Positions 4,852 through 44,766 of a DNA stretch of 64,000 bases are shown here, piece after piece. This DNA comes from Eremomyces bilateralis CBS 781.70. Taxonomy: Eukaryota. The translations under genes were made by a program, and so were the position numbers. The notes beneath the pieces were generated by a model. It saw only the letters and a list, made by a program, of their open reading frames with translations, was not told the DNA's origin and did no database searches. The stretch lies in NCBI GenBank assembly GCA_010015585.1, contig ML975166.1; one strand, written 5' to 3'. The first letter of the stretch is position 1; each line of letters begins with the position of its first letter.

Positions 4852-7487
4852 GACCAGGGCCTGTAACTGCTGGAAGTCTGCGGGGCTGGCCCGGTACCCT
4901 AGGTGTCCCGAACTAAACCGTTCTCGGGTAGCGATCGAGCGAAGGAAAAACCAACCCGTTGAAATATGCAACTGACATAAAGATCAACGAGCTCCGATCC
5001 AAGTCGGCTAGAGGGCCGAAACCGCCACTAGGATACTACCCGGGCCGTGACGCCAACTCTGCATAGCCCCGGCTAGCTCAAAAGCCATTCCCGAGTCAGC
5101 ACTTGCGCCTGAGAACGCGAGTCAAGGTAGACACCAAACCAGAGCCCAGTTTTCGGAGCTGCAATAATTAATGCATTTACATAACTTATTTAATCCATAA
5201 CGTTACAAAAATCTGGCAGGATTAGGCCTAACTAGCAGTGTGCAACTGGGGTTTGCTCTTGGTTCTCCATTCCTGGCATTGGGACATTGGATTGTGGTGG
5301 AAGACCCATCCGAAAAGGGAGGTGGGCGTGCCAAAGCTGCACCACCAGTTCAGGGACAGTCTGAAATAATTTGACAGAATTATTTGGGTAACATTTTAAC
5401 ACCGTAACTAAGTAAGTTATGTATGTACGTATCTAAGTCATAACAATCTGTTATGGTACGAACGCAAGCAACTGTTTTCTTACTCCACCTGTTATGGTTC
5501 CAGCCTTCCAGGCCTGTTTTCCTGGAACCGTAGTGGCACTGTGGCTTGCCTTTTCACTCTGCTGCGCCGCACCAAGCACCACCAGGCAGTGAAGCAGCTT
5601 AACCATGAGCACAACCTCGTCGCAATGCCGTGGCTTCTCAATTTCTGTCTTTTCACCTGGACAGCAATCTTTCTCATGCATCGCTACGTCTACTCTTCGC
5701 GCACTACCCTAATGAATCTCGCCTTTGGCCATGCGTCCTTTGCGAATCAACGAGTACGGCGAGTTCAGCCTGACTAATGATCTGATCGACAACATTCCTC
5801 CTTATGCTATACTTTCACACACCTGGGGGGAGGATTATGGGAGGATTATGAAAAGGTCAACTTCAAGACTTGACGATAGGACCTAGGAAGACAAAATCTG
5901 GATACAAATAACTTCGCTTCTGTACACAGCAAGCGGCCCGCGATAATCTACAACATGTCTAGGTGGACACCTGCTGTATCGACAAATCGGACCATAATGA
6001 GCTTTCAGAAGCCATTAACTCTATGTTGCGCTGGTATCGCGATGCGGTAAAATGCTATGTATATCTCTCAGATGTTTCAACGAATGATCACGACGAGGTC
6101 AGCGCGTCCTTGCAGTCGTGGGAACCAGCACGTCGCAAAAGCCGATGGTTTACCCGCGGGTGGACACTTCAAGAGCTTCTTGCTCCGTCGTCGGTTGAAT
6201 TTTTCTTTTCAAACGGCAAGCAACTCGACGACAAGAGGTCCCTAGAGAGACTGCTACACGAGATTACAGGGATCGCGGTTCCAGCTCTTCAACGCGCTCC
6301 TCTCGCTGAATTCAGCATACACGAGCGAATGTCATGGGCTAAATAGCGGCAGACTAAGCGCGAGGAGGACAAGGCCTATGCTTTGCTTGGCCTTTTTGGC
6401 ATTCATATGCCGCTTATTTATGGTGAGGGGATAGAGAGTGCATTCGGCCGGCTTCATGAGGAATTTGATAAGAGAGTTCGTCCTATACAGCGTCGTGAGT
6501 ATGTAGCTATGACTATCCTCTATCACTATACTATAAACGGATTACTGATTGAAAGCGGATATGCAGCCAGTCCAGTCGATCGCCTACCATATGCTGTCGA
6601 AGCGCCCTTTAACTCCTATTTGAAGCAACATAAGCCCATTTGCCTTCCCGATACCCGCGTCGATCTCCTTAGAAAGATAAATAGCTGGGTAGACGGACAA
6701 AGTGGGCAATGTATCTTCTGGCTGAGTGGATTAGCTGGCACGGGAAAGTCAACCATCGCTCGCACCTTTGCGGGAACACAATCTCAACGCGGTGGCTTAG
6801 TGGCCAGCTCCTTCTTCTCACGAGGTGGTGGGGATGTCGACCATGCAGGCAAGTTTGTTACAAGCCTTGCATGCCAGCTTGCAAACAGTATACCCACTCT
6901 TCACCAGCATGTTTGCGATGCTATCACGGGGTATAGCGACCTTACGGATCGATCGCTCCGTGAACAGTGGCATCAGCTTGTCTTGTGTCCACTTTCAAAG
7001 CTAGAAAGTACCGGCTACCAAGCATTGTACGTTCTTGTGGTTGATGCGCTTGATTAATGCGACGACGACGACGACATCCGGATTATCCTCCGTCTCTTGG
7101 CCGAGGTTCGATCGTTAGACAAGGTGCAGCTACGGGTATTTCTGACGAGCAGGCCCGAGATCCCAATTCGACATGGGTTCTATCAGATGCCGGATGAGGA
7201 ATACCAAAGCTTTATGCTCCATAACATATCGCCGTCGACCGTTGACCACGATATCGCCATCTTCGTCGAAGACAATCTTAAGCTTATCCGACAGGAACGT
7301 TCTCTAGATGCTGGTTGGCCAGGCGAAGAGGCCCTCAGATATTTGGTCCAAGCTGCGAGCGGGCTATTCATTTGGGCCACAACCGCTTGCCGCTTTATCC
7401 GTGAAGGTAAACGACATGCTGCTCGAAGACTCGATACAATCCTTAAGAGCTGTGGCAGCGCTGGCACTGTTACAGCACCGGAAAAGC

Positions 7488-9910: not shown

Positions 9911-9914
9911 TAAT

Positions 9915-11143
9915 CCGCGTCGACACTACATACTCTTTTTCATCTTCCTATTCAGGATATCAATTCTCTTGATCCCCTCCGGCCGGCTGCTCTTCAGGCC
10001 GCTCAGGCCGCTTTCCGGGGTATACGGTATCCGATTATCGACGAAAAATCTATGATCGGCCTTCGCCAGCTCTCCTATATTGACCGTCGTTGCCGCGAGA
10101 TCTTTCCCGGCGTTGATAAGTCTTTCGGTGGTCTCTACATTCTCCTCTGTGGCGATTTCTTCCAGCTTCCTCCGGTCTTGGCAACTGCTCTTTATAACCA
10201 GAAGAGGCTTCCAAATCTAGATGAGCAGCATGGGCGTAATATCTACGACCAATTCGAGCGAACAATTAAGCTTGATGAAGTTGTTCGGCAGCAAGGCAAT
10301 GACGTTGAGTCAATTTAGTTCCGCCAGGCTCTCGATCACCTGCGGATAGGCTCCGTAACTCGTGACGACTGGACACTGCTTAGTACACGAGTACAGGCCA
10401 TGCTTCCATCTGAGGAGGTGGCATCTTTCCGGGATGCTCTCCGTATCTTCGGTAAGAAAGCGCCTGTCGCCGCGTTTAACTACTGTCGTTTGCGCGATCT
10501 TCGTTCTCCTGTTATGATATGTCGAGCAATTCACGAAGGAGGGGCAAAGGCAGAAAAGGTTCCGACTAATGAGGCAGGAAACCTCCATTCTGAGATTCCG
10601 ATGGCATTGGGAACCCGTGTTATGTTGACAGAGAATCTCTGGACCGAACGAGGCCTGGTGAACGGTGCGATGGGAACAGTGCGTGATATTAGCTAGCAGG
10701 CTAGTGCTGATATCCATAAGGATCCTCCTTCCGTACTCCTCGTCCAATTCGATCGGTATGATGGACCGACGTTAGACATAGGCGGCTTTGCTTTAGTCCC
10801 AATCCTCCCATCACGCCGTGATTTCTATATCGGGAACACTTCCTACTCACGTTCACAGTTCCCGTTGACTATCGCATATGCCATCACAACGCATAAGTCG
10901 CAGGGAACGACTCTAGCACCGGCTGTGCTAGACATTTCGGAGCGGGAGTTCGCGCCTGGCCTGACCTACGTGGCAGTCTCCCGTGTAAAAAGCCTTAGAG
11001 GGATCATGTTTGAGGCTCCATTCGATTTGCAGGATTTGAACCCTCGCACGGAGAGCGAGACGATGAAGTCCCGGAAGCAGGATGCGCTTAGGAGGGAGAA
11101 CCAGCATATCACGGGAGAGGTTTGTTTACATCATTTGAATTAA
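9915..11143 (+). mobile_element. Pif1-family helicase fragment (Helitron-like), pseudogenised
   Basis: Motifs STLHTLF, IIDEKSMIG, LCGDFFQLPPV, VVRQQG, VMLTENLWTERGLVNGAMGTV, AYAITTHKSQG and YVAVSRV. TAG stops at 10316-10318 and 10694-10696. Walker A and the Rep domain are absent. Confidence 0.85.
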
Positions 11144-20942: not shown

Positions 20943-22692
20943 CTACTTCCCCCATCGAGCGCTCTCGTCCCCGCCTACCCATTCATGCTCGACATACCCC
21001 AAGCGGCGCTTCACCTCTTTGACCGTTTCACTGTCCCCCGTGTTCTTCCCGATATTATCACTGATCTTAATCGCCGGGTTGCCCGAGGCCGAAGATATCT
21101 TGATGACAATGTTCATGGGAGTGGACTTGTGCCCGGTGGTCGTGCTCACGAAGTCGTCTGCACGTTGATGTTAGTTACTTGACGTTGCTTTGGGTATACC
21201 AGTCATACTCGTGAAGAATGTCCCGACTCCAAAGCTTGGCTGGAAGCCGCTGGCCTCGGCTGCGGCCTTGTATTTAAGGCACAGATCCGTGGTTAGAGAG
21301 TCAGAAAAGACAATGCTTTTCTGATCGGTAATCCCTTCCTGATCATAGAATTTTCGCATCGACTGAATGAACTCCAATGGATCTCCCGAGTCTTGCCGGA
21401 CGCCGGTATACGCCTGAGCGAATGTCTTCTCGGTACCGGCCGTGCTCTGCTCAATCCGCTCGTATAGACCGTGCAGTTCCGATGCTTGCGCATCGGTCAT
21501 ACTCCCACGGCGTTGCGGCAGACCGGCCAGACGATGGTCAAACATATCGGCTGGCCGGATTTTCTTCCGAAACGCTTTGAGAAATGCAGGTGTGCCAAAG
21601 GTGTCCGTCAGCATGACCGCGAGAACCTGAAGAGATTAGCTCGGGACGATTGAAGGACGTTGTTTTGGGCTCTCACCCCTTCACCGAATGTATTGATCCA
21701 ACAACGCAGACCGATTTCGTTGGCATTCTCATAGTCGTTCGTCGCCGCCGCGATTCCCATGAACCATTCGTGGGCCACGGTGCCGACCGGCTGCAGTCCC
21801 ATCGACATGGCGAAGTGGACGTTGCTGGTCCCGGTCAATTGGCCTGGCCAGCCGTTATTTTCGCCATCGTTCTTCGCCTCGATCATGCCCTGTAGGACCA
21901 ACTTCTGCGCGTGATAGTTCCGCCGCCGCCTGCTTCCGAATTCCGAGAATCGGCACCCGGCTTTTAACAGCTGCGTGCCCTTCTCTTTGGCTTTCTCGAC
22001 TTGGCCATCATAGTTCCAGTCGCGGTCGCGGAACTTGAAGTATGCCTCGCTGACCAGTGCGAGGAGTGGGATTTCGTAGAGGATGGTTTCGATCCAGCGC
22101 CCCGAGATTTTTAACTCGATGCCACCGAGCTCTTCATCGCCCTCGGAACTCTCCGCGTGAAATTTCAGTGACACTTGCTCGCTGGGTTTGAACTGGAACT
22201 GTTCCAGATATGCCAGATAGGCTTGGTTGAGGTACGGGCACGTCGCACCCAGGAACTGGAACTCGTCTGGCGTGAGACGGATGTTCGCCAGACCTTCAAA
22301 GCTGACGTGAGAATCTGTGAGCAACATGATACGCGAATCAACTTACGATCGATCTGCTTCTGTAACCATTGGACGGCGGTGCGGCTCAATTTCATATTCG
22401 GGGTTCTATTGGTCAGGTGGTACGTCGCCTCTGATTACAAGGTTAGAGCATAGCAATACTGCACTTCATATGACTGTTGCGTACCTATATCCGGAAAGTA
22501 CCTCAGGATGCATGCTGGACAAGGTAAGTTCAAGAACCGAAATGGTGGAGTTCCCACGCACCTTGCATCGTGAGCTTATAGAGATCCCTACAGATGATGA
22601 GTTTGATATGAAATCCATGCGACAAACATTACTCACGTATCCAAAATGGAGAACACCCCTTCCGGGACATCCTGTTGGTTTTGCCCTGCCAT
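20943..22692 (-). CDS. NPT1: Nicotinate phosphoribosyltransferase
   Basis: SILDT/DLYKLTM, ILYEIPLLALVSE, FSEFGSRRR, GTSNVHFAM...GTVAHEW, LTDTFGT, GVRQDSGDP, FSDSL, IKISDNIGKNTGD. Confidence 0.95.
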
Positions 22693-23220
22693 GCCACGGA
22701 TATCGGGGTGACGTAGTAGAGCTGGTTAGAAGTCGATGGATTGGGGAGAAACTTGCAACTCCAAGATCGATATCGGATGCGATGTCAGCAACATTTTCAC
22801 TTCCAGAATCAAGCCGGCTCCATGACCGGCGATCAGTTGCAATGGTTACAGAAATTCTAAGTGACCCGGAGTGGATTAATGGTGATAGGTACGTACAGTC
22901 AGAACTCAGAAGCTGTCACCCTGGTGGGATTTGCGTATCATCTGACAAGGATATTGTGTATTGTGCAGTAGTCCCCCTCAGTCTGATGGTGTAAGTAACA
23001 TAATAAACATGTCATCAATTGAGGAATAACAGCCACTTTTAAGGCGACTGCTATCTTTAGGTGTGGTTAGAGCTCCACCCTAGTCTAACATTGAGGAATT
23101 CTTCAACAAATGCGTCTGGCTATGCTACACAATTACCGTTTTGACGTTGCTTTCAGCACCTGTCCCATCGGAGTTGCCCGAATCCCTTGCGAGGTACATT
23201 CCACGTCATTCATAGCGGGA

Positions 23221-23590
23221 GCGAAATACCCGATATCGGGTATTTTGCTATGGAGCCTTCAAAATTCGAATGATTTGTACATCTATGAGGAGCAAAACTC
23301 CCGATATCGGGTATTTTGTGATGGAGTCTTAGAAAGTCGTATATCTAGTGAGGAGCGAAATACACGATATCGGGTGTTTCGCGATTGTTCGACAACCCCT
23401 TTAGTTGTACTGGGACTTCGGGAGCTAAGTACCTGATATCGCGGGTTTGGAGATAGCACCTGCGAATATCCATTTATTTCAAAACATGCATGCAGAACGA
23501 AATATCCAATATCGGGTATTTCGCGACAGAGCCTCCAACAATCCCATTGTTTGCATCGGTAGCAAAAATACCCGATATCGGGAATTTCGC
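23221..23590. repeat. Array of six 28-bp palindromic repeats with variable 35-45 bp spacers (CRISPR-like geometry, no cas genes)
   Basis: Copies start at 23221, 23292, 23355, 23424, 23497 and 23563. Consensus GCGAAATACCCGATATCGGGTATTTCGC is a perfect dyad. Mismatches to consensus: 1, 5, 2, 8, 3, 4. Confidence 0.9.
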
Positions 23591-23715
23591 GATAGAGCCT
23601 TAAAAAATCCAATTCCATGCTGACGGAGTCATGATACCCAGTCTAATTACGCCAGGCCTGAGAAACCCGCTATGATGTCGCTTTTCCACCACCATTTGCC
23701 CTCGTCACAGTTCCT

Positions 23716-24691
23716 TCACCTAAGCCCCGCCAGTCTCCGATCCTGCGTCTCGGTCAGGGCTCGGCTGCCCGACAAGAAGGCAACCACGCCCACCACGCTC
23801 ACAGCCGGCAGCACCTGGAAGAGGTTCCAGCTGGTATAGTACAAGAAGAAGACGCCCTCCAGCGCGACCACGGAGCCGAAGAACAGCACGTGGGCCACCG
23901 GCGCCTGGGAAAACGCCTTCGGGGCATGGTCCACGTTCGCTCCCAGCATCGCCCAGCCCACCAGCAATGCCGGCAACGCAGCTAGCGTCGCCAGGGTGAA
24001 GACCAACGAGATGATCTTTGGGGGACTTTGCGGGTCGGAACGGAAGATGTGGTGGATCTCAGGAAGCTTTCCATATCGAACTGGCTTCTCGGGGATCGAA
24101 ATGGGGGCCGCCAGGTCGCGGGAAATGTCGACCGTGAAGGCAGGGACATTGTATGGAGTGGACGATCCGAACGAGCCGATGATTATGGAGGCTTGAAGGG
24201 AATCCGAGGATGTGAGGAACTGGATGGGAAGGTCTTTATGTGTCTAATAAAGTCGGTCAGCAAGGGCTAGGCCGCGCATGTATGGAGTCCTTACAATTTC
24301 CACCTTGCCTTTCCCTGAATCACTGATGCTGAACGGGAAACTCTCCTCCAAGCGTGTGTCCTGATCATGGAGCACCAAAAACGCCTGATGTGGCCTTCGC
24401 CCCGTTTTCCCTTCTTTGGCCGTCAGGACTATCTTGAGCGTCTCTCCCGTCCCAAACGACAGCGGATTCACCACGGTGGAGCCTGGGACGATGCTGTCAT
24501 GACCGTTAAACACCAAACCGACAGCCCCACCCATTGACCACGACTTACCTTTCTTTCGATCGCGCGGCATTGCCCGCACCCTTCCCTTGTACGATCACGG
24601 AGGCATCGGAGAAGCTCCAGGACGATGCGGCAGATGTCAGGAAGGCATTGCCCAGGGTCAGCCAGAGGGTAGATGTGCTAAAGAACCTCAT
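23716..24691 (-). CDS. SWP1: Oligosaccharyltransferase subunit ribophorin II (Swp1)
   Basis: Signal peptide followed by SSWSFSDA, RPHQAFL, RYGKLPEIHHIFRSDPQSPPK, three TM segments, and SGSRALTETQDRRLAGLR. Confidence 0.9.
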
Positions 24692-31403: not shown

Positions 31404-33211
31404 ATGGTACCGAAAGAATCCGCGCGTGAGAGCGCCGACACGCCTGAGCCCGTGGAGAAGGGTTTTGCGACTCTCTCGACATTGCAGTAAGTGGCACTAC
31501 ATCTATATGGTAACGTTCGATCTAACATCAACTTGTAGAGTTGGAGTGAAGGCGTTTGTTGAGAAAGTGAGTAGCGCCTTGCGTTTATGTCTTATATCAT
31601 CAGCATCTTTGGCATCTCATGCTCAACCATAACCACCCCCCTTTAATTGGGCCAGCTGGTGCTTGGGAAGCATGTCACCCCAATAGCATCGAAATTCCAC
31701 GCACTGTTATGTGTTCTTATCGTTTGAGCGTTACTAACGCAGTACTTCAGGAAGGCGAAAAACGCAAAGCCGAGATTCTTGCCATCCAAAGCAAGAAGGG
31801 GAAGCTAGCCTTCTACGTGCATTACGAGGAGTTCAACAAGCGTCTCGATGAATGGGTCCCGGAAGGTCGCATCGACCTCTCAAAAGAGGTGGAATGGCCT
31901 GCCCCAGAGAAGCCCGAAAAGAAGAAAGCCGCCCAGACCTCCAAAGCGAGCAACAAATCCAAAGCCGATGCCGCGCTTGCCCAAGCGTTACGAGACAAGA
32001 AGAACCCCAAGCGCGCACAGCAGCGCCAAGCAAGACTTGATCGCGAACTGTCTGGCACGCCGGACTCGCAGAGCATCAATCTGCCGGGTAAGGTGTCTCG
32101 AGCAAGCAAAGCCGGAGGCAAAGAAAATCGGGAGATCAAGCAAGACAAGGACTCCGTGACCGTCATCTCGGAAGTGATCGACGGCACGCCGAAAGCCGAA
32201 GATGAAGATATGGTGGATCTGATGGAGATGGCCGACGCCGCAGCGGCCGCGAAGGCGCAGGCGCCCCACGAGCCGTTCAGCCGGGAGGAGGAGATCGAGA
32301 AACTGCGCACCGGCGGCTCCATGACGCAGAACCAGACTGAGATCTCCCGCGTGCGGAATCTGAGCCACATCCAGATGGGGAAGCACGAGATCGAGCCGTG
32401 GTACTTCAGTCCGTATCCGCAGGAGTTCTCAGAGGTGGACATGGTGTACATTTGCGAGTCGTGCTTGTCGTACTTTGGCGGGCTGAAGCAATTCACGAGA
32501 CACCGGGCGAAATGCTCGCTGCTTCACCCGCCCGGCAACGAGATTTACCGGGACGAATATGTCTCGTTCTTCGAGATCGACGGCCGACGGCAGCGGACAT
32601 GGTGCCGAAACCTGTGTCTTCTATCGAAACTATTCCTCGACCACAAGACGCTGTACTACGATGTCGATCCGTTCCTCTTCTACTGCATGGCCATCCGAGA
32701 TGAGCATGGCTGCCACCTCGTCGGGTACTTCAGCAAAGAGAAAGAGAGCGTCGAGGGGTACAACGTCGCCTGTATCCTGACGCTGCCCCAGTATCAGCGC
32801 AAGGGATTCGGCAAACTCCTCATCGATTTCAGCTACGAACTATCGAAGCGGGAGGGCAAGCTCGGGAGCCCCGAGAAGCCTCTCAGTGACCTGGGGTTGC
32901 TGGGCTACCGCGCCTACTGGCAAGAGACCATCGTCGATCTCCTGATGGACGGACGGACGGACGCCAACATCGAAGAGCTGGGCGCGACGACAGCGATGAC
33001 CACCAACGACGTCTTACATACGCTGCAGAATCTGAACATGATCAAGACGTCGAAGAACCAGCACGTCATCGTCCTCACCGATGCGGTGGTCGCGCAGTGG
33101 AAGAAGCAGAAGGAGAAGGAGAAGATCAAGGGGAAAAGGACGATTGATTCGGATAAATTACAGTGGCGACCACCGGTCTTCACGGCGTCCTCTCGAACCT
33201 GGAACTGGTAA
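31404..33211 (+). CDS. ESA1: MYST histone acetyltransferase Esa1 (NuA4 catalytic subunit)
   Basis: Tudor-knot [20 protein letters not shown] motifs [64 protein letters not shown]. Confidence 0.96.
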
Positions 33212-42082: not shown

Positions 42083-42210
42083 ATCTCTTATTCTCTTTAT
42101 TTATTCTCTTAATCTCTAATTCTCTATTCTCTAATTCTCTATTCTCTCAGCTCTCTCAATATCTCAGCTCTACTCTAATTCCCTATTCTCTAATCTCATC
42201 TCTGATCTCA
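42083..42210. repeat. Low-complexity CT-rich tract (TCTCTAAT/TCTCTAT units)
   Basis: Degenerate tandem units between the REX4 start and the CYP504 3' end. Confidence 0.7.
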
Positions 42211-43978: not shown

Positions 43979-44707
43979 TGCTTTCCTTTCACTAGTTTCT
44001 TCACTGCTTCTTTCGTACAGCCGGCCTGTATTCAAACAAAATATCTCTTGACTTCTGGTCCTTAAAGCCAAATTCACCGGTCCACTCGGTTCATATCAGT
44101 CGGTCCGAGTCAAACATTCCAGTCCCTGTATACCCCGCAGTGTAGACAACAGCGTGCGGAATTCTGCCGCACTCTTCAGCAGATGTTTACCCGTGACGTT
44201 GAATTCGATGCAGTGTTTACATAAAAAAAACGCGAGACCCAGGATGTGCCAGTTCGATCGATGTTAAGCGCAGGGCTTTGGAAGCAACTTCACATGCCAC
44301 TGTCTATGCCAAGTTGACATATCGCAGTGCCAAGCCATCTGCTCTCTTGCATCACTGCACCCACCCAGGGTATCAGATTTGATCTCAATAACAACAAGTT
44401 GTCCCTCTATAACAGAAACTCAAGGGCAGCTTTGAACGTGTTATATCATAAATTTACTTCATGTGCATCTACAGTGAGATCTTCCTAGAATTTAGATTGA
44501 GGCAATAGGCGGCCGGGGCTGCTTTGCCGTCCAGTAATTATGTAGCTCCACGATATCACCTTGGTGTGACCTGTCATGTCGAATCCAGTTTCCAGTGATC
44601 CCATTGTTTATCAACTCTCTAGAACCATTTTCATGTTCTATGAGTATGACTGGAGGTTTCTTCTCAGTTCATCCATTCACAACCTCCATATTCAACACTT
44701 CGATCAA

Positions 44708-44766
44708 CTCTCCACTCCACTCCACACTCTCCACTCTCCACTCTCCACTCTCCACTCTCCACTCTC
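44708..44766. repeat. Heptamer microsatellite (CTCTCCA)n
   Basis: About 5-6 perfect units plus degenerate flanking units. Confidence 0.85.

Follow-up and report, generated by a model that had tools for sequence, protein, structure and literature searches.

What put a row of long palindromes between two core genes of a fungal genome, and what has kept them recognizable? The locus lies in a 64,000-nucleotide stretch of DNA (the window) from Eremomyces bilateralis, a Dothideomycete, and consists of six 28-bp palindromes located past the stop of SWP1 and ahead of the start of NPT1. A preliminary description of this sequence pointed to its CRISPR-like layout and offered three explanations: (a) an operator array of the host, (b) a precursor of small RNAs, and (c) a binding-site array of a mobile element. 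We found no account of the SWP1-NPT1 array in the literature searched, which consisted mostly of open papers.

The array is real. Recomputed palindrome starts (Table 1) reproduce the six copies at periods of 71, 63, 69, 73, and 66 bp, with intervening spacers of 43, 35, 41, 45, and 38 bp, and the majority consensus of the six copies is a perfect 28-bp dyad, both as first described. The palindrome is centred on GATATC, and its core has CGATA on both strands. A search for the palindrome with up to three mismatches returned 3 matches against 0 in 100 shuffles and chance is therefore ruled out, while unit 4, at eight mismatches, has to be regarded as a weak copy. Tandem Repeats Finder did not detect the array, the units of which are too diverged, and the profile built from the six units has no further copies elsewhere in the 64-kb window.

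Table 1. Coordinates of the array, its candidate borders, and the adjoining coding exons in the window
Feature	Position	Strand	Remarks
NPT1 (nicotinate phosphoribosyltransferase), first coding exon	22636..22692	-	ATG at 22692; NAPRTase match
Left arm of 10-bp perfect inverted repeat	23210..23219	+	Abuts unit 1; weak candidate for a decayed (sub)terminal repeat
Full tandem array	23217..23625	+	Six ~68-bp units head-to-tail in one orientation; unit-unit identity 49–71%
Palindrome, unit 1	23221..23248		1 mismatch to the dyad consensus
Palindrome, unit 2	23292..23319		5 mismatches; sole symmetric Watson-Crick change
Palindrome, unit 3	23355..23382		2 mismatches to the dyad consensus
Palindrome, unit 4	23424..23451		8 mismatches; most decayed
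AATAAA hexamer	23473..23478	-	The only one between SWP1 stop and NPT1 start; candidate SWP1 poly(A) signal
Palindrome, unit 5	23497..23524		3 mismatches to the dyad consensus
Palindrome, unit 6	23563..23590		4 mismatches, ungapped
Candidate seventh, decayed unit	23626..23670	+	By-eye alignment; z 1.2, p 0.13, non-significant
Right arm of 10-bp perfect inverted repeat	23666..23675	-	Pairs with 23210–23219
SWP1 (ribophorin II), last coding exon	23716..24243	-	Stop at 23716–23718; Ribophorin_II_C match

SWP1 and NPT1 are both encoded on the minus strand, and the protein sequence of the last SWP1 exon shows 100% identity to an Eremomyces bilateralis protein. The array lies 125 bp past the SWP1 stop and 529–898 bp upstream of the NPT1 ATG, confirming its placement among core genes (about 125 bp and about 530–900 bp in the preliminary description). 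Pfam was run on the 88 window ORFs of at least 130 aa, a set from which short exons are left out, and gave matches to core genes, to P450s, and to a single PIF1 helicase fragment; among these 88 ORFs there are no Cas or transposase families, in line with the earlier statement that the window has no cas gene. The PIF1 fragment is the nearest mobile relic to the array, 13 kb off. It occupies 9914–10315 on the plus strand, is a probable Helitron relic, and adjoins a NACHT-type fragment at 6347–7054.

Several other features of the window were considered. A stop-free frame of 227 codons (22311–22994, plus strand) runs antisense to the first NPT1 exons and has no Pfam match, and pyrimidine-rich short-period repeats occur at 42084–42210 and 44707–44766. 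A 22-nt match between 23170–23191 and 32798–32819 was set aside as chance, the latter segment being located within the coding sequence of an ESA1-type acetyltransferase. A tRNA cluster was rejected (0 tRNA genes). A coding repeat, called unlikely earlier because of the periods, was rejected: the two ORFs over the array have no Pfam match, and a perfect dyad in each unit is not expected from coding sequence.

The origin of the array follows from its spacers. All six units align over their full length, spacers included. To remove the edges, 11–15 bases were trimmed from the start and 5–6 from the end of each spacer, and the summed alignment score of the remaining cores still exceeds three nulls (mononucleotide shuffles, dinucleotide shuffles, and GC-matched window segments, 2000 draws each) at z 3.1–4.2 and p≤0.002. 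Five of the 15 trimmed spacer pairs reach p<0.05 in forward orientation, compared to 1 of 15 when one partner is reverse-complemented. The spacers are thus homologous through their cores, and the earlier statement that they share just short edges does not hold. Because the trimmed spacers are homologous, the array is very probably the product of one ~68-bp unit, containing the 28-bp palindrome, which was duplicated head-to-tail into six copies that then diverged. We are close to certain of this origin as a tandem repeat, which makes the array a degenerate minisatellite.

Within the units, divergence of the palindrome is about half that of the remainder. In the palindromes, 23 of 168 cells depart from the majority base of their column, compared to 32 of 113 in the spacer cores (Fisher p=0.003; p=0.013 by column permutation), bearing out the claim that the palindromes are better kept than the spacers. 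The contrast against the spacer core persists when any one unit is dropped (p 0.0008–0.043), while against the whole spacer p rises to 0.08–0.10 upon removal of unit 1, 2, or 3. We consider this conservation contrast to be of moderate strength, since the tests treat related units as independent. Mean identity falls with distance from the palindrome: it is 76% in the palindrome itself (pairwise range 61–89%), 71% over the 11 columns that follow, 55% for the core, and 49% for the tail. The central octamer CGATATCG carries 2 changes in 48 cells, and the spacer cores have 33–34% GC with base runs. The preliminary description had named equal divergence of palindromes and end-to-end alignable spacers as the mark of an ordinary decayed minisatellite: the spacers do align end to end, but they are about twice as diverged as the palindromes.

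What is preserved is the sequence and not merely its symmetry. Hairpin covariation does not exceed that of shuffles (152 of 500 shuffles reach the score), and a symmetric Watson-Crick swap is found in just one of the 21 changed pairs. Methylation was suggested earlier as the cause of several CpG mismatches, yet C>T/G>A changes affect 7 of 54 CpG cells versus 2 of 30 non-CpG C/G cells (p=0.48), and this decay signature was not recovered. Likewise, the RIP indices of the array equal the window average and give no RIP signature. Since the palindrome appears, with the moderate strength stated above, to have diverged at about half the rate of its surroundings and without symmetric compensation, its most likely reader would have been a dimeric DNA-binding protein that recognized this specific sequence in double-stranded form.

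Where such a reader came from is best explained, in our tentative view, by a mobile element. The repeat would most likely stem from a non-autonomous DNA transposon, as its internal or subterminal repeat array, and a protein of that transposon would have docked on the CGATA-cored palindromes while the family was active; one copy would then have inserted between SWP1 and NPT1, where it is probably now decaying and not needed by the host. For this whole account, a decayed tandem repeat that was the docking array of a non-autonomous DNA transposon, the support is indirect, and we put its probability slightly under one half. It nevertheless makes the third of the initial explanations the best reading, with a weak inverted repeat and core-like metagenome arrays on its side and the lack of a second copy seen against it.

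The inverted repeat consists of the two 10-bp arms listed in Table 1, which qualifies the previous remark that no terminal inverted repeat was seen. The pair was found post hoc and arises in 1.3–5.3% of random placements, depending on the flank searched. Candidate target duplications measure just 2–4 bp, for example TA around 23215–23670, and within 85 nt behind either arm there is no perfect stem of at least 5 bp that would represent a HINE-type 3′ hairpin. Contigs matching the array at ≥80% number 1 of 130,522 in run X1 and 3 of 683,345 in run X2, all from this locus, in a comparison that is insensitive to short diverged matches and in which X1 and X2 may be the source of the window; run X4 gave 0 contigs, a count that carries no weight. 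Indeed, this matching missed a 33-nt record lying over unit 1 on unit 6, where the two are ~87% alike. Second young copies in the genome are unlikely; old copies are possible. Over the array, runs X1 to X3 are identical to one another and possibly represent one strain.

Known elements offer a partial parallel. The MITE DTC84 contains tandem core repeats in which a palindrome occupies the less variable segment of each repeat (PMC3879986), and tandem-repeat MITE and HINE families are described there and in PMC4067079 as high in copy number, with 11–15-bp subterminal repeats, a 3′ stem-loop, TT/AA flanks, and often a microsatellite. DTC84 of Donax trunculus and the HINE/DINE-1 (Helentron) elements share with our locus the short, non-coding tandem array of ~0.5 kb between short inverted repeats, with a palindrome in the most conserved part of each repeat. 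In contrast, the fungal array has been seen in one copy, has a weak 10-bp inverted repeat, and lacks a 3′ stem-loop, and its units measure ~68 bp compared to ~156 bp in DTC84. HINE/Helentron ends are defined by a stem-loop behind the 3′ subterminal repeat and by TT flanks; with no such stem-loop found behind either arm, the array does not qualify as a HINE. A possible class of reader is indicated by BED-finger proteins related to hAT transposases, which bind CGATA according to PMC7471704. The BEAF-32 and DREF sites have CGATA in common with our core, a likeness in sequence that may bear on the reader; they are 5–10-bp sites, in contrast to the 28-bp dyad.

Arrays of similar cores exist in other DNA. 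A metagenome scan for two cores 44–70 bases apart returned at least 122 loci, and among the matches listed 29 of 122 contain at least five core-like copies; among these 29 loci, as listed, 8 have a common sharp end and 3 hold the array in long inverted arms. In two of the loci listed, a 67-bp tandem repeat adjoins a fragmented gene, and at least one locus (L023) is bacterial. None of the loci examined contains a homologue of the unit outside the core. As the loci were picked by the core and do not match outside it, the metagenome arrays are analogues only: palindromes of this kind are evidently common in repeat- or element-like DNA, and kinship to the fungal array does not follow.

Individual metagenome loci have features of their own. 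The sharp-ended repeat family (L022:1482–1866, L030, L068, L077, L080, L105, L128, L140; also L088 and L141) measures 0.35–0.4 kb where both ends are seen and contains 9–15 CCCGATATCGGG-like palindromes; on the opposite side, the common sequence extends past a matching hexamer, and no target duplication was seen. L039, L059, and L079 are foldback-like: a central array of GATATC-cored repeats, phased at 8 bp, is enclosed by long inverted arms. The 67-bp tandem repeat of L083 (1501–1855) and L062 has a CCGATATCGG core and lies beside a fragmented minus-strand gene with just sub-threshold helix-turn-helix matches, one fragment of which presumably resembles eukaryotic DNA transposases. In the bacterial contig L023 (1088–1235), a 27-bp tandem repeat with the same core is located between two genes.

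Among prokaryote genomes, the inner 22-mer of the palindrome was found at 8 loci, each a lone intergenic palindrome, with 1–2 sites per genome in four of the five genomes searched; a pattern of two units gave 1 locus. Judging by their names, the 7 records that carry one, from 6 organisms, all belong to Bacteroidota. Bacteroidota sites of the inner 22 bp comprise L001–L008, L019, L150, and L153, and L019 has two of them, 66 bp apart. Both upstream genes scanned beside the 22-mer encode LuxR-family regulators, with the site directly behind. Judged from sequence, the lone Bacteroidota palindrome is a candidate operator, and we assume that its 7-2-7 layout is akin to NarL boxes. We take the presence of the inner 22-mer in Bacteroidota as convergence, and a bacterial source of the array was rejected on account of the lone sites and the lack of any match outside the core. 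A viral source was likewise rejected, as four scans of viral contigs gave 0, 10, 2, and 6 loci and no related array.

Could the array have arisen without any protein reader? In a neutral minisatellite, hairpin slippage would have driven the duplication, palindrome-initiated breaks and gene conversion would have kept the palindromes uniform, and the AT-rich, homopolymer-bearing spacers would mutate faster. The smooth fall of identity away from the palindrome, the low GC content and base runs of the spacer cores, and the fact that neither a second copy nor clear element ends were seen all agree with this explanation, and hairpin-driven expansion models are cited in PMC3879986. However, correction from arm to arm predicts symmetric changes, of which the 21 changed pairs contain the single case given above, and the origin of the perfect 28-bp dyad is left unexplained. 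Further, the units are just 49–71% alike, so that any conversion must have stopped long ago. We regard neutral expansion as unlikely, if still a serious contender.

The second rival keeps the protein reader and assigns it to the host. Here, a dimeric transcription or boundary factor would bind the palindromes now, so that the array would act as an NPT1 enhancer or a SWP1-NPT1 insulator in the manner of baculovirus hr elements. Its position upstream of the NPT1 ATG and the better preservation of the palindromes fit such a role, and the core conforms in 3 of 6 units to CCGN4CGG, the site bound by Aspergillus LeuB according to PMC6221358. A CCG triplet is lost in the other three, however, and one mutated triplet abolishes LeuB binding as reported in the same paper. 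Moreover, changes affect 4 of 36 cells in the triplets and 8 of 72 in neighbouring positions, so that the triplets are not better preserved; a 10-bp site does not account for a 28-bp dyad, the window contains 16 other CCGN4CGG sites, and the palindrome centres are without helical phasing (resultant 0.13–0.47). The Leu3-type site noted in the preliminary description is thus present in the consensus, intact in half of the copies, and not specially conserved. The likeness to Leu3/LeuB sites lies in the shared CCGN4CGG; those are 5–10-bp sites, and the motif is broken in three of the fungal units. We consider a host array of this kind, the operator array of the first explanation, possible but fairly improbable.

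The host reading draws further on layout, which closely resembles that of hr enhancers. As described in bioRxiv 10.64898/2026.05.26.727872 and PMC6368282, baculovirus hrs are ~75-bp repeats, each with a 28–30-bp imperfect palindrome that has a restriction-site hexamer at its centre and is bound by an IE1 dimer. Among the systems compared, this is the closest layout to the fungal array with its 63–73-bp repeats and 28-bp palindromes centred on GATATC. Repeat and palindrome sizes agree; a viral context, multiple hrs, and an IE1-like reader were not found. According to these papers, hrs occur at several sites per viral genome and depend on IE1, whereas the fungal array sits in a chromosome among core genes, and the likeness is one of layout only. 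No hr-like element of such kind is described for fungi in the literature searched. By analogy, the array could be a working, host-kept docking array of the hr type that lies between SWP1 and NPT1, a gene of NAD salvage, serves there as a boundary or an enhancer, and is read by a candidate dimeric, perhaps transposase-derived CGATA-binding protein; this specific version we hold to be improbable.

A third rival places the function in RNA, either as hairpins in a long SWP1 3′ UTR or as a small-RNA precursor. In the RNA run X3, an unspliced 897-nt contig covers 22768–23664 without differences from the window and spans the array, while six introns of SWP1 and NPT1 are skipped; in two intron bins checked, depth was as expected for zero intron cover. 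This contig hints weakly at transcription of the array, as X3 is one run and contigs give neither strand nor level nor ends. It crosses the array without a joint, and a chain of micro-introns was therefore rejected. If the minus-strand AATAAA at 23478 is used as the SWP1 poly(A) signal, the SWP1 3′ UTR would include units 5 and 6. On either strand the fold is stronger than in shuffles (z −3.5 and −4.7), yet fold strength is a trivial consequence of the palindromes, and covariation does not exceed that of shuffles. Changed pairs that still pair amount to 5 of 21 on the minus (SWP1) strand versus 9 of 21 on the plus strand, and Rfam gives 7 miRNA-type matches, all far below the gathering score. 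Of the small-RNA precursor proposed initially, the contig across the array speaks in favour, the lack of covariation and of an Rfam match at gathering score against; we judge an RNA element very improbable.

Finally, a CRISPR-like memory array that takes up unrelated spacers has practically no probability left: its repeat and spacer lengths lie within the CRISPR range, the spacer lengths vary, and partly palindromic repeats are a further likeness to CRISPR arrays (compare PMC3072357), but the spacers descend from one ancestral unit, which removes this reading, the repeats are far more degenerate at 76% identity, no Cas domain occurs in the 88 window ORFs, no protospacer-like match was found among 50,697 records of phages and 72,556 of plasmids, and no CRISPR repeat family is among the 7 Rfam matches. 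The resemblance in lengths that was first noted stands.

A false lead is thereby removed, as the SWP1-NPT1 array is not a fungal CRISPR-like locus. It represents instead a clean, small case of a long palindrome outlasting the spacers in a tandem repeat. Dispersed copies, if they exist, would identify it as the array by which an undescribed fungal DNA transposon is recognized; conservation and binding in relatives would instead make it an hr-like cis element in control of a core NAD gene.
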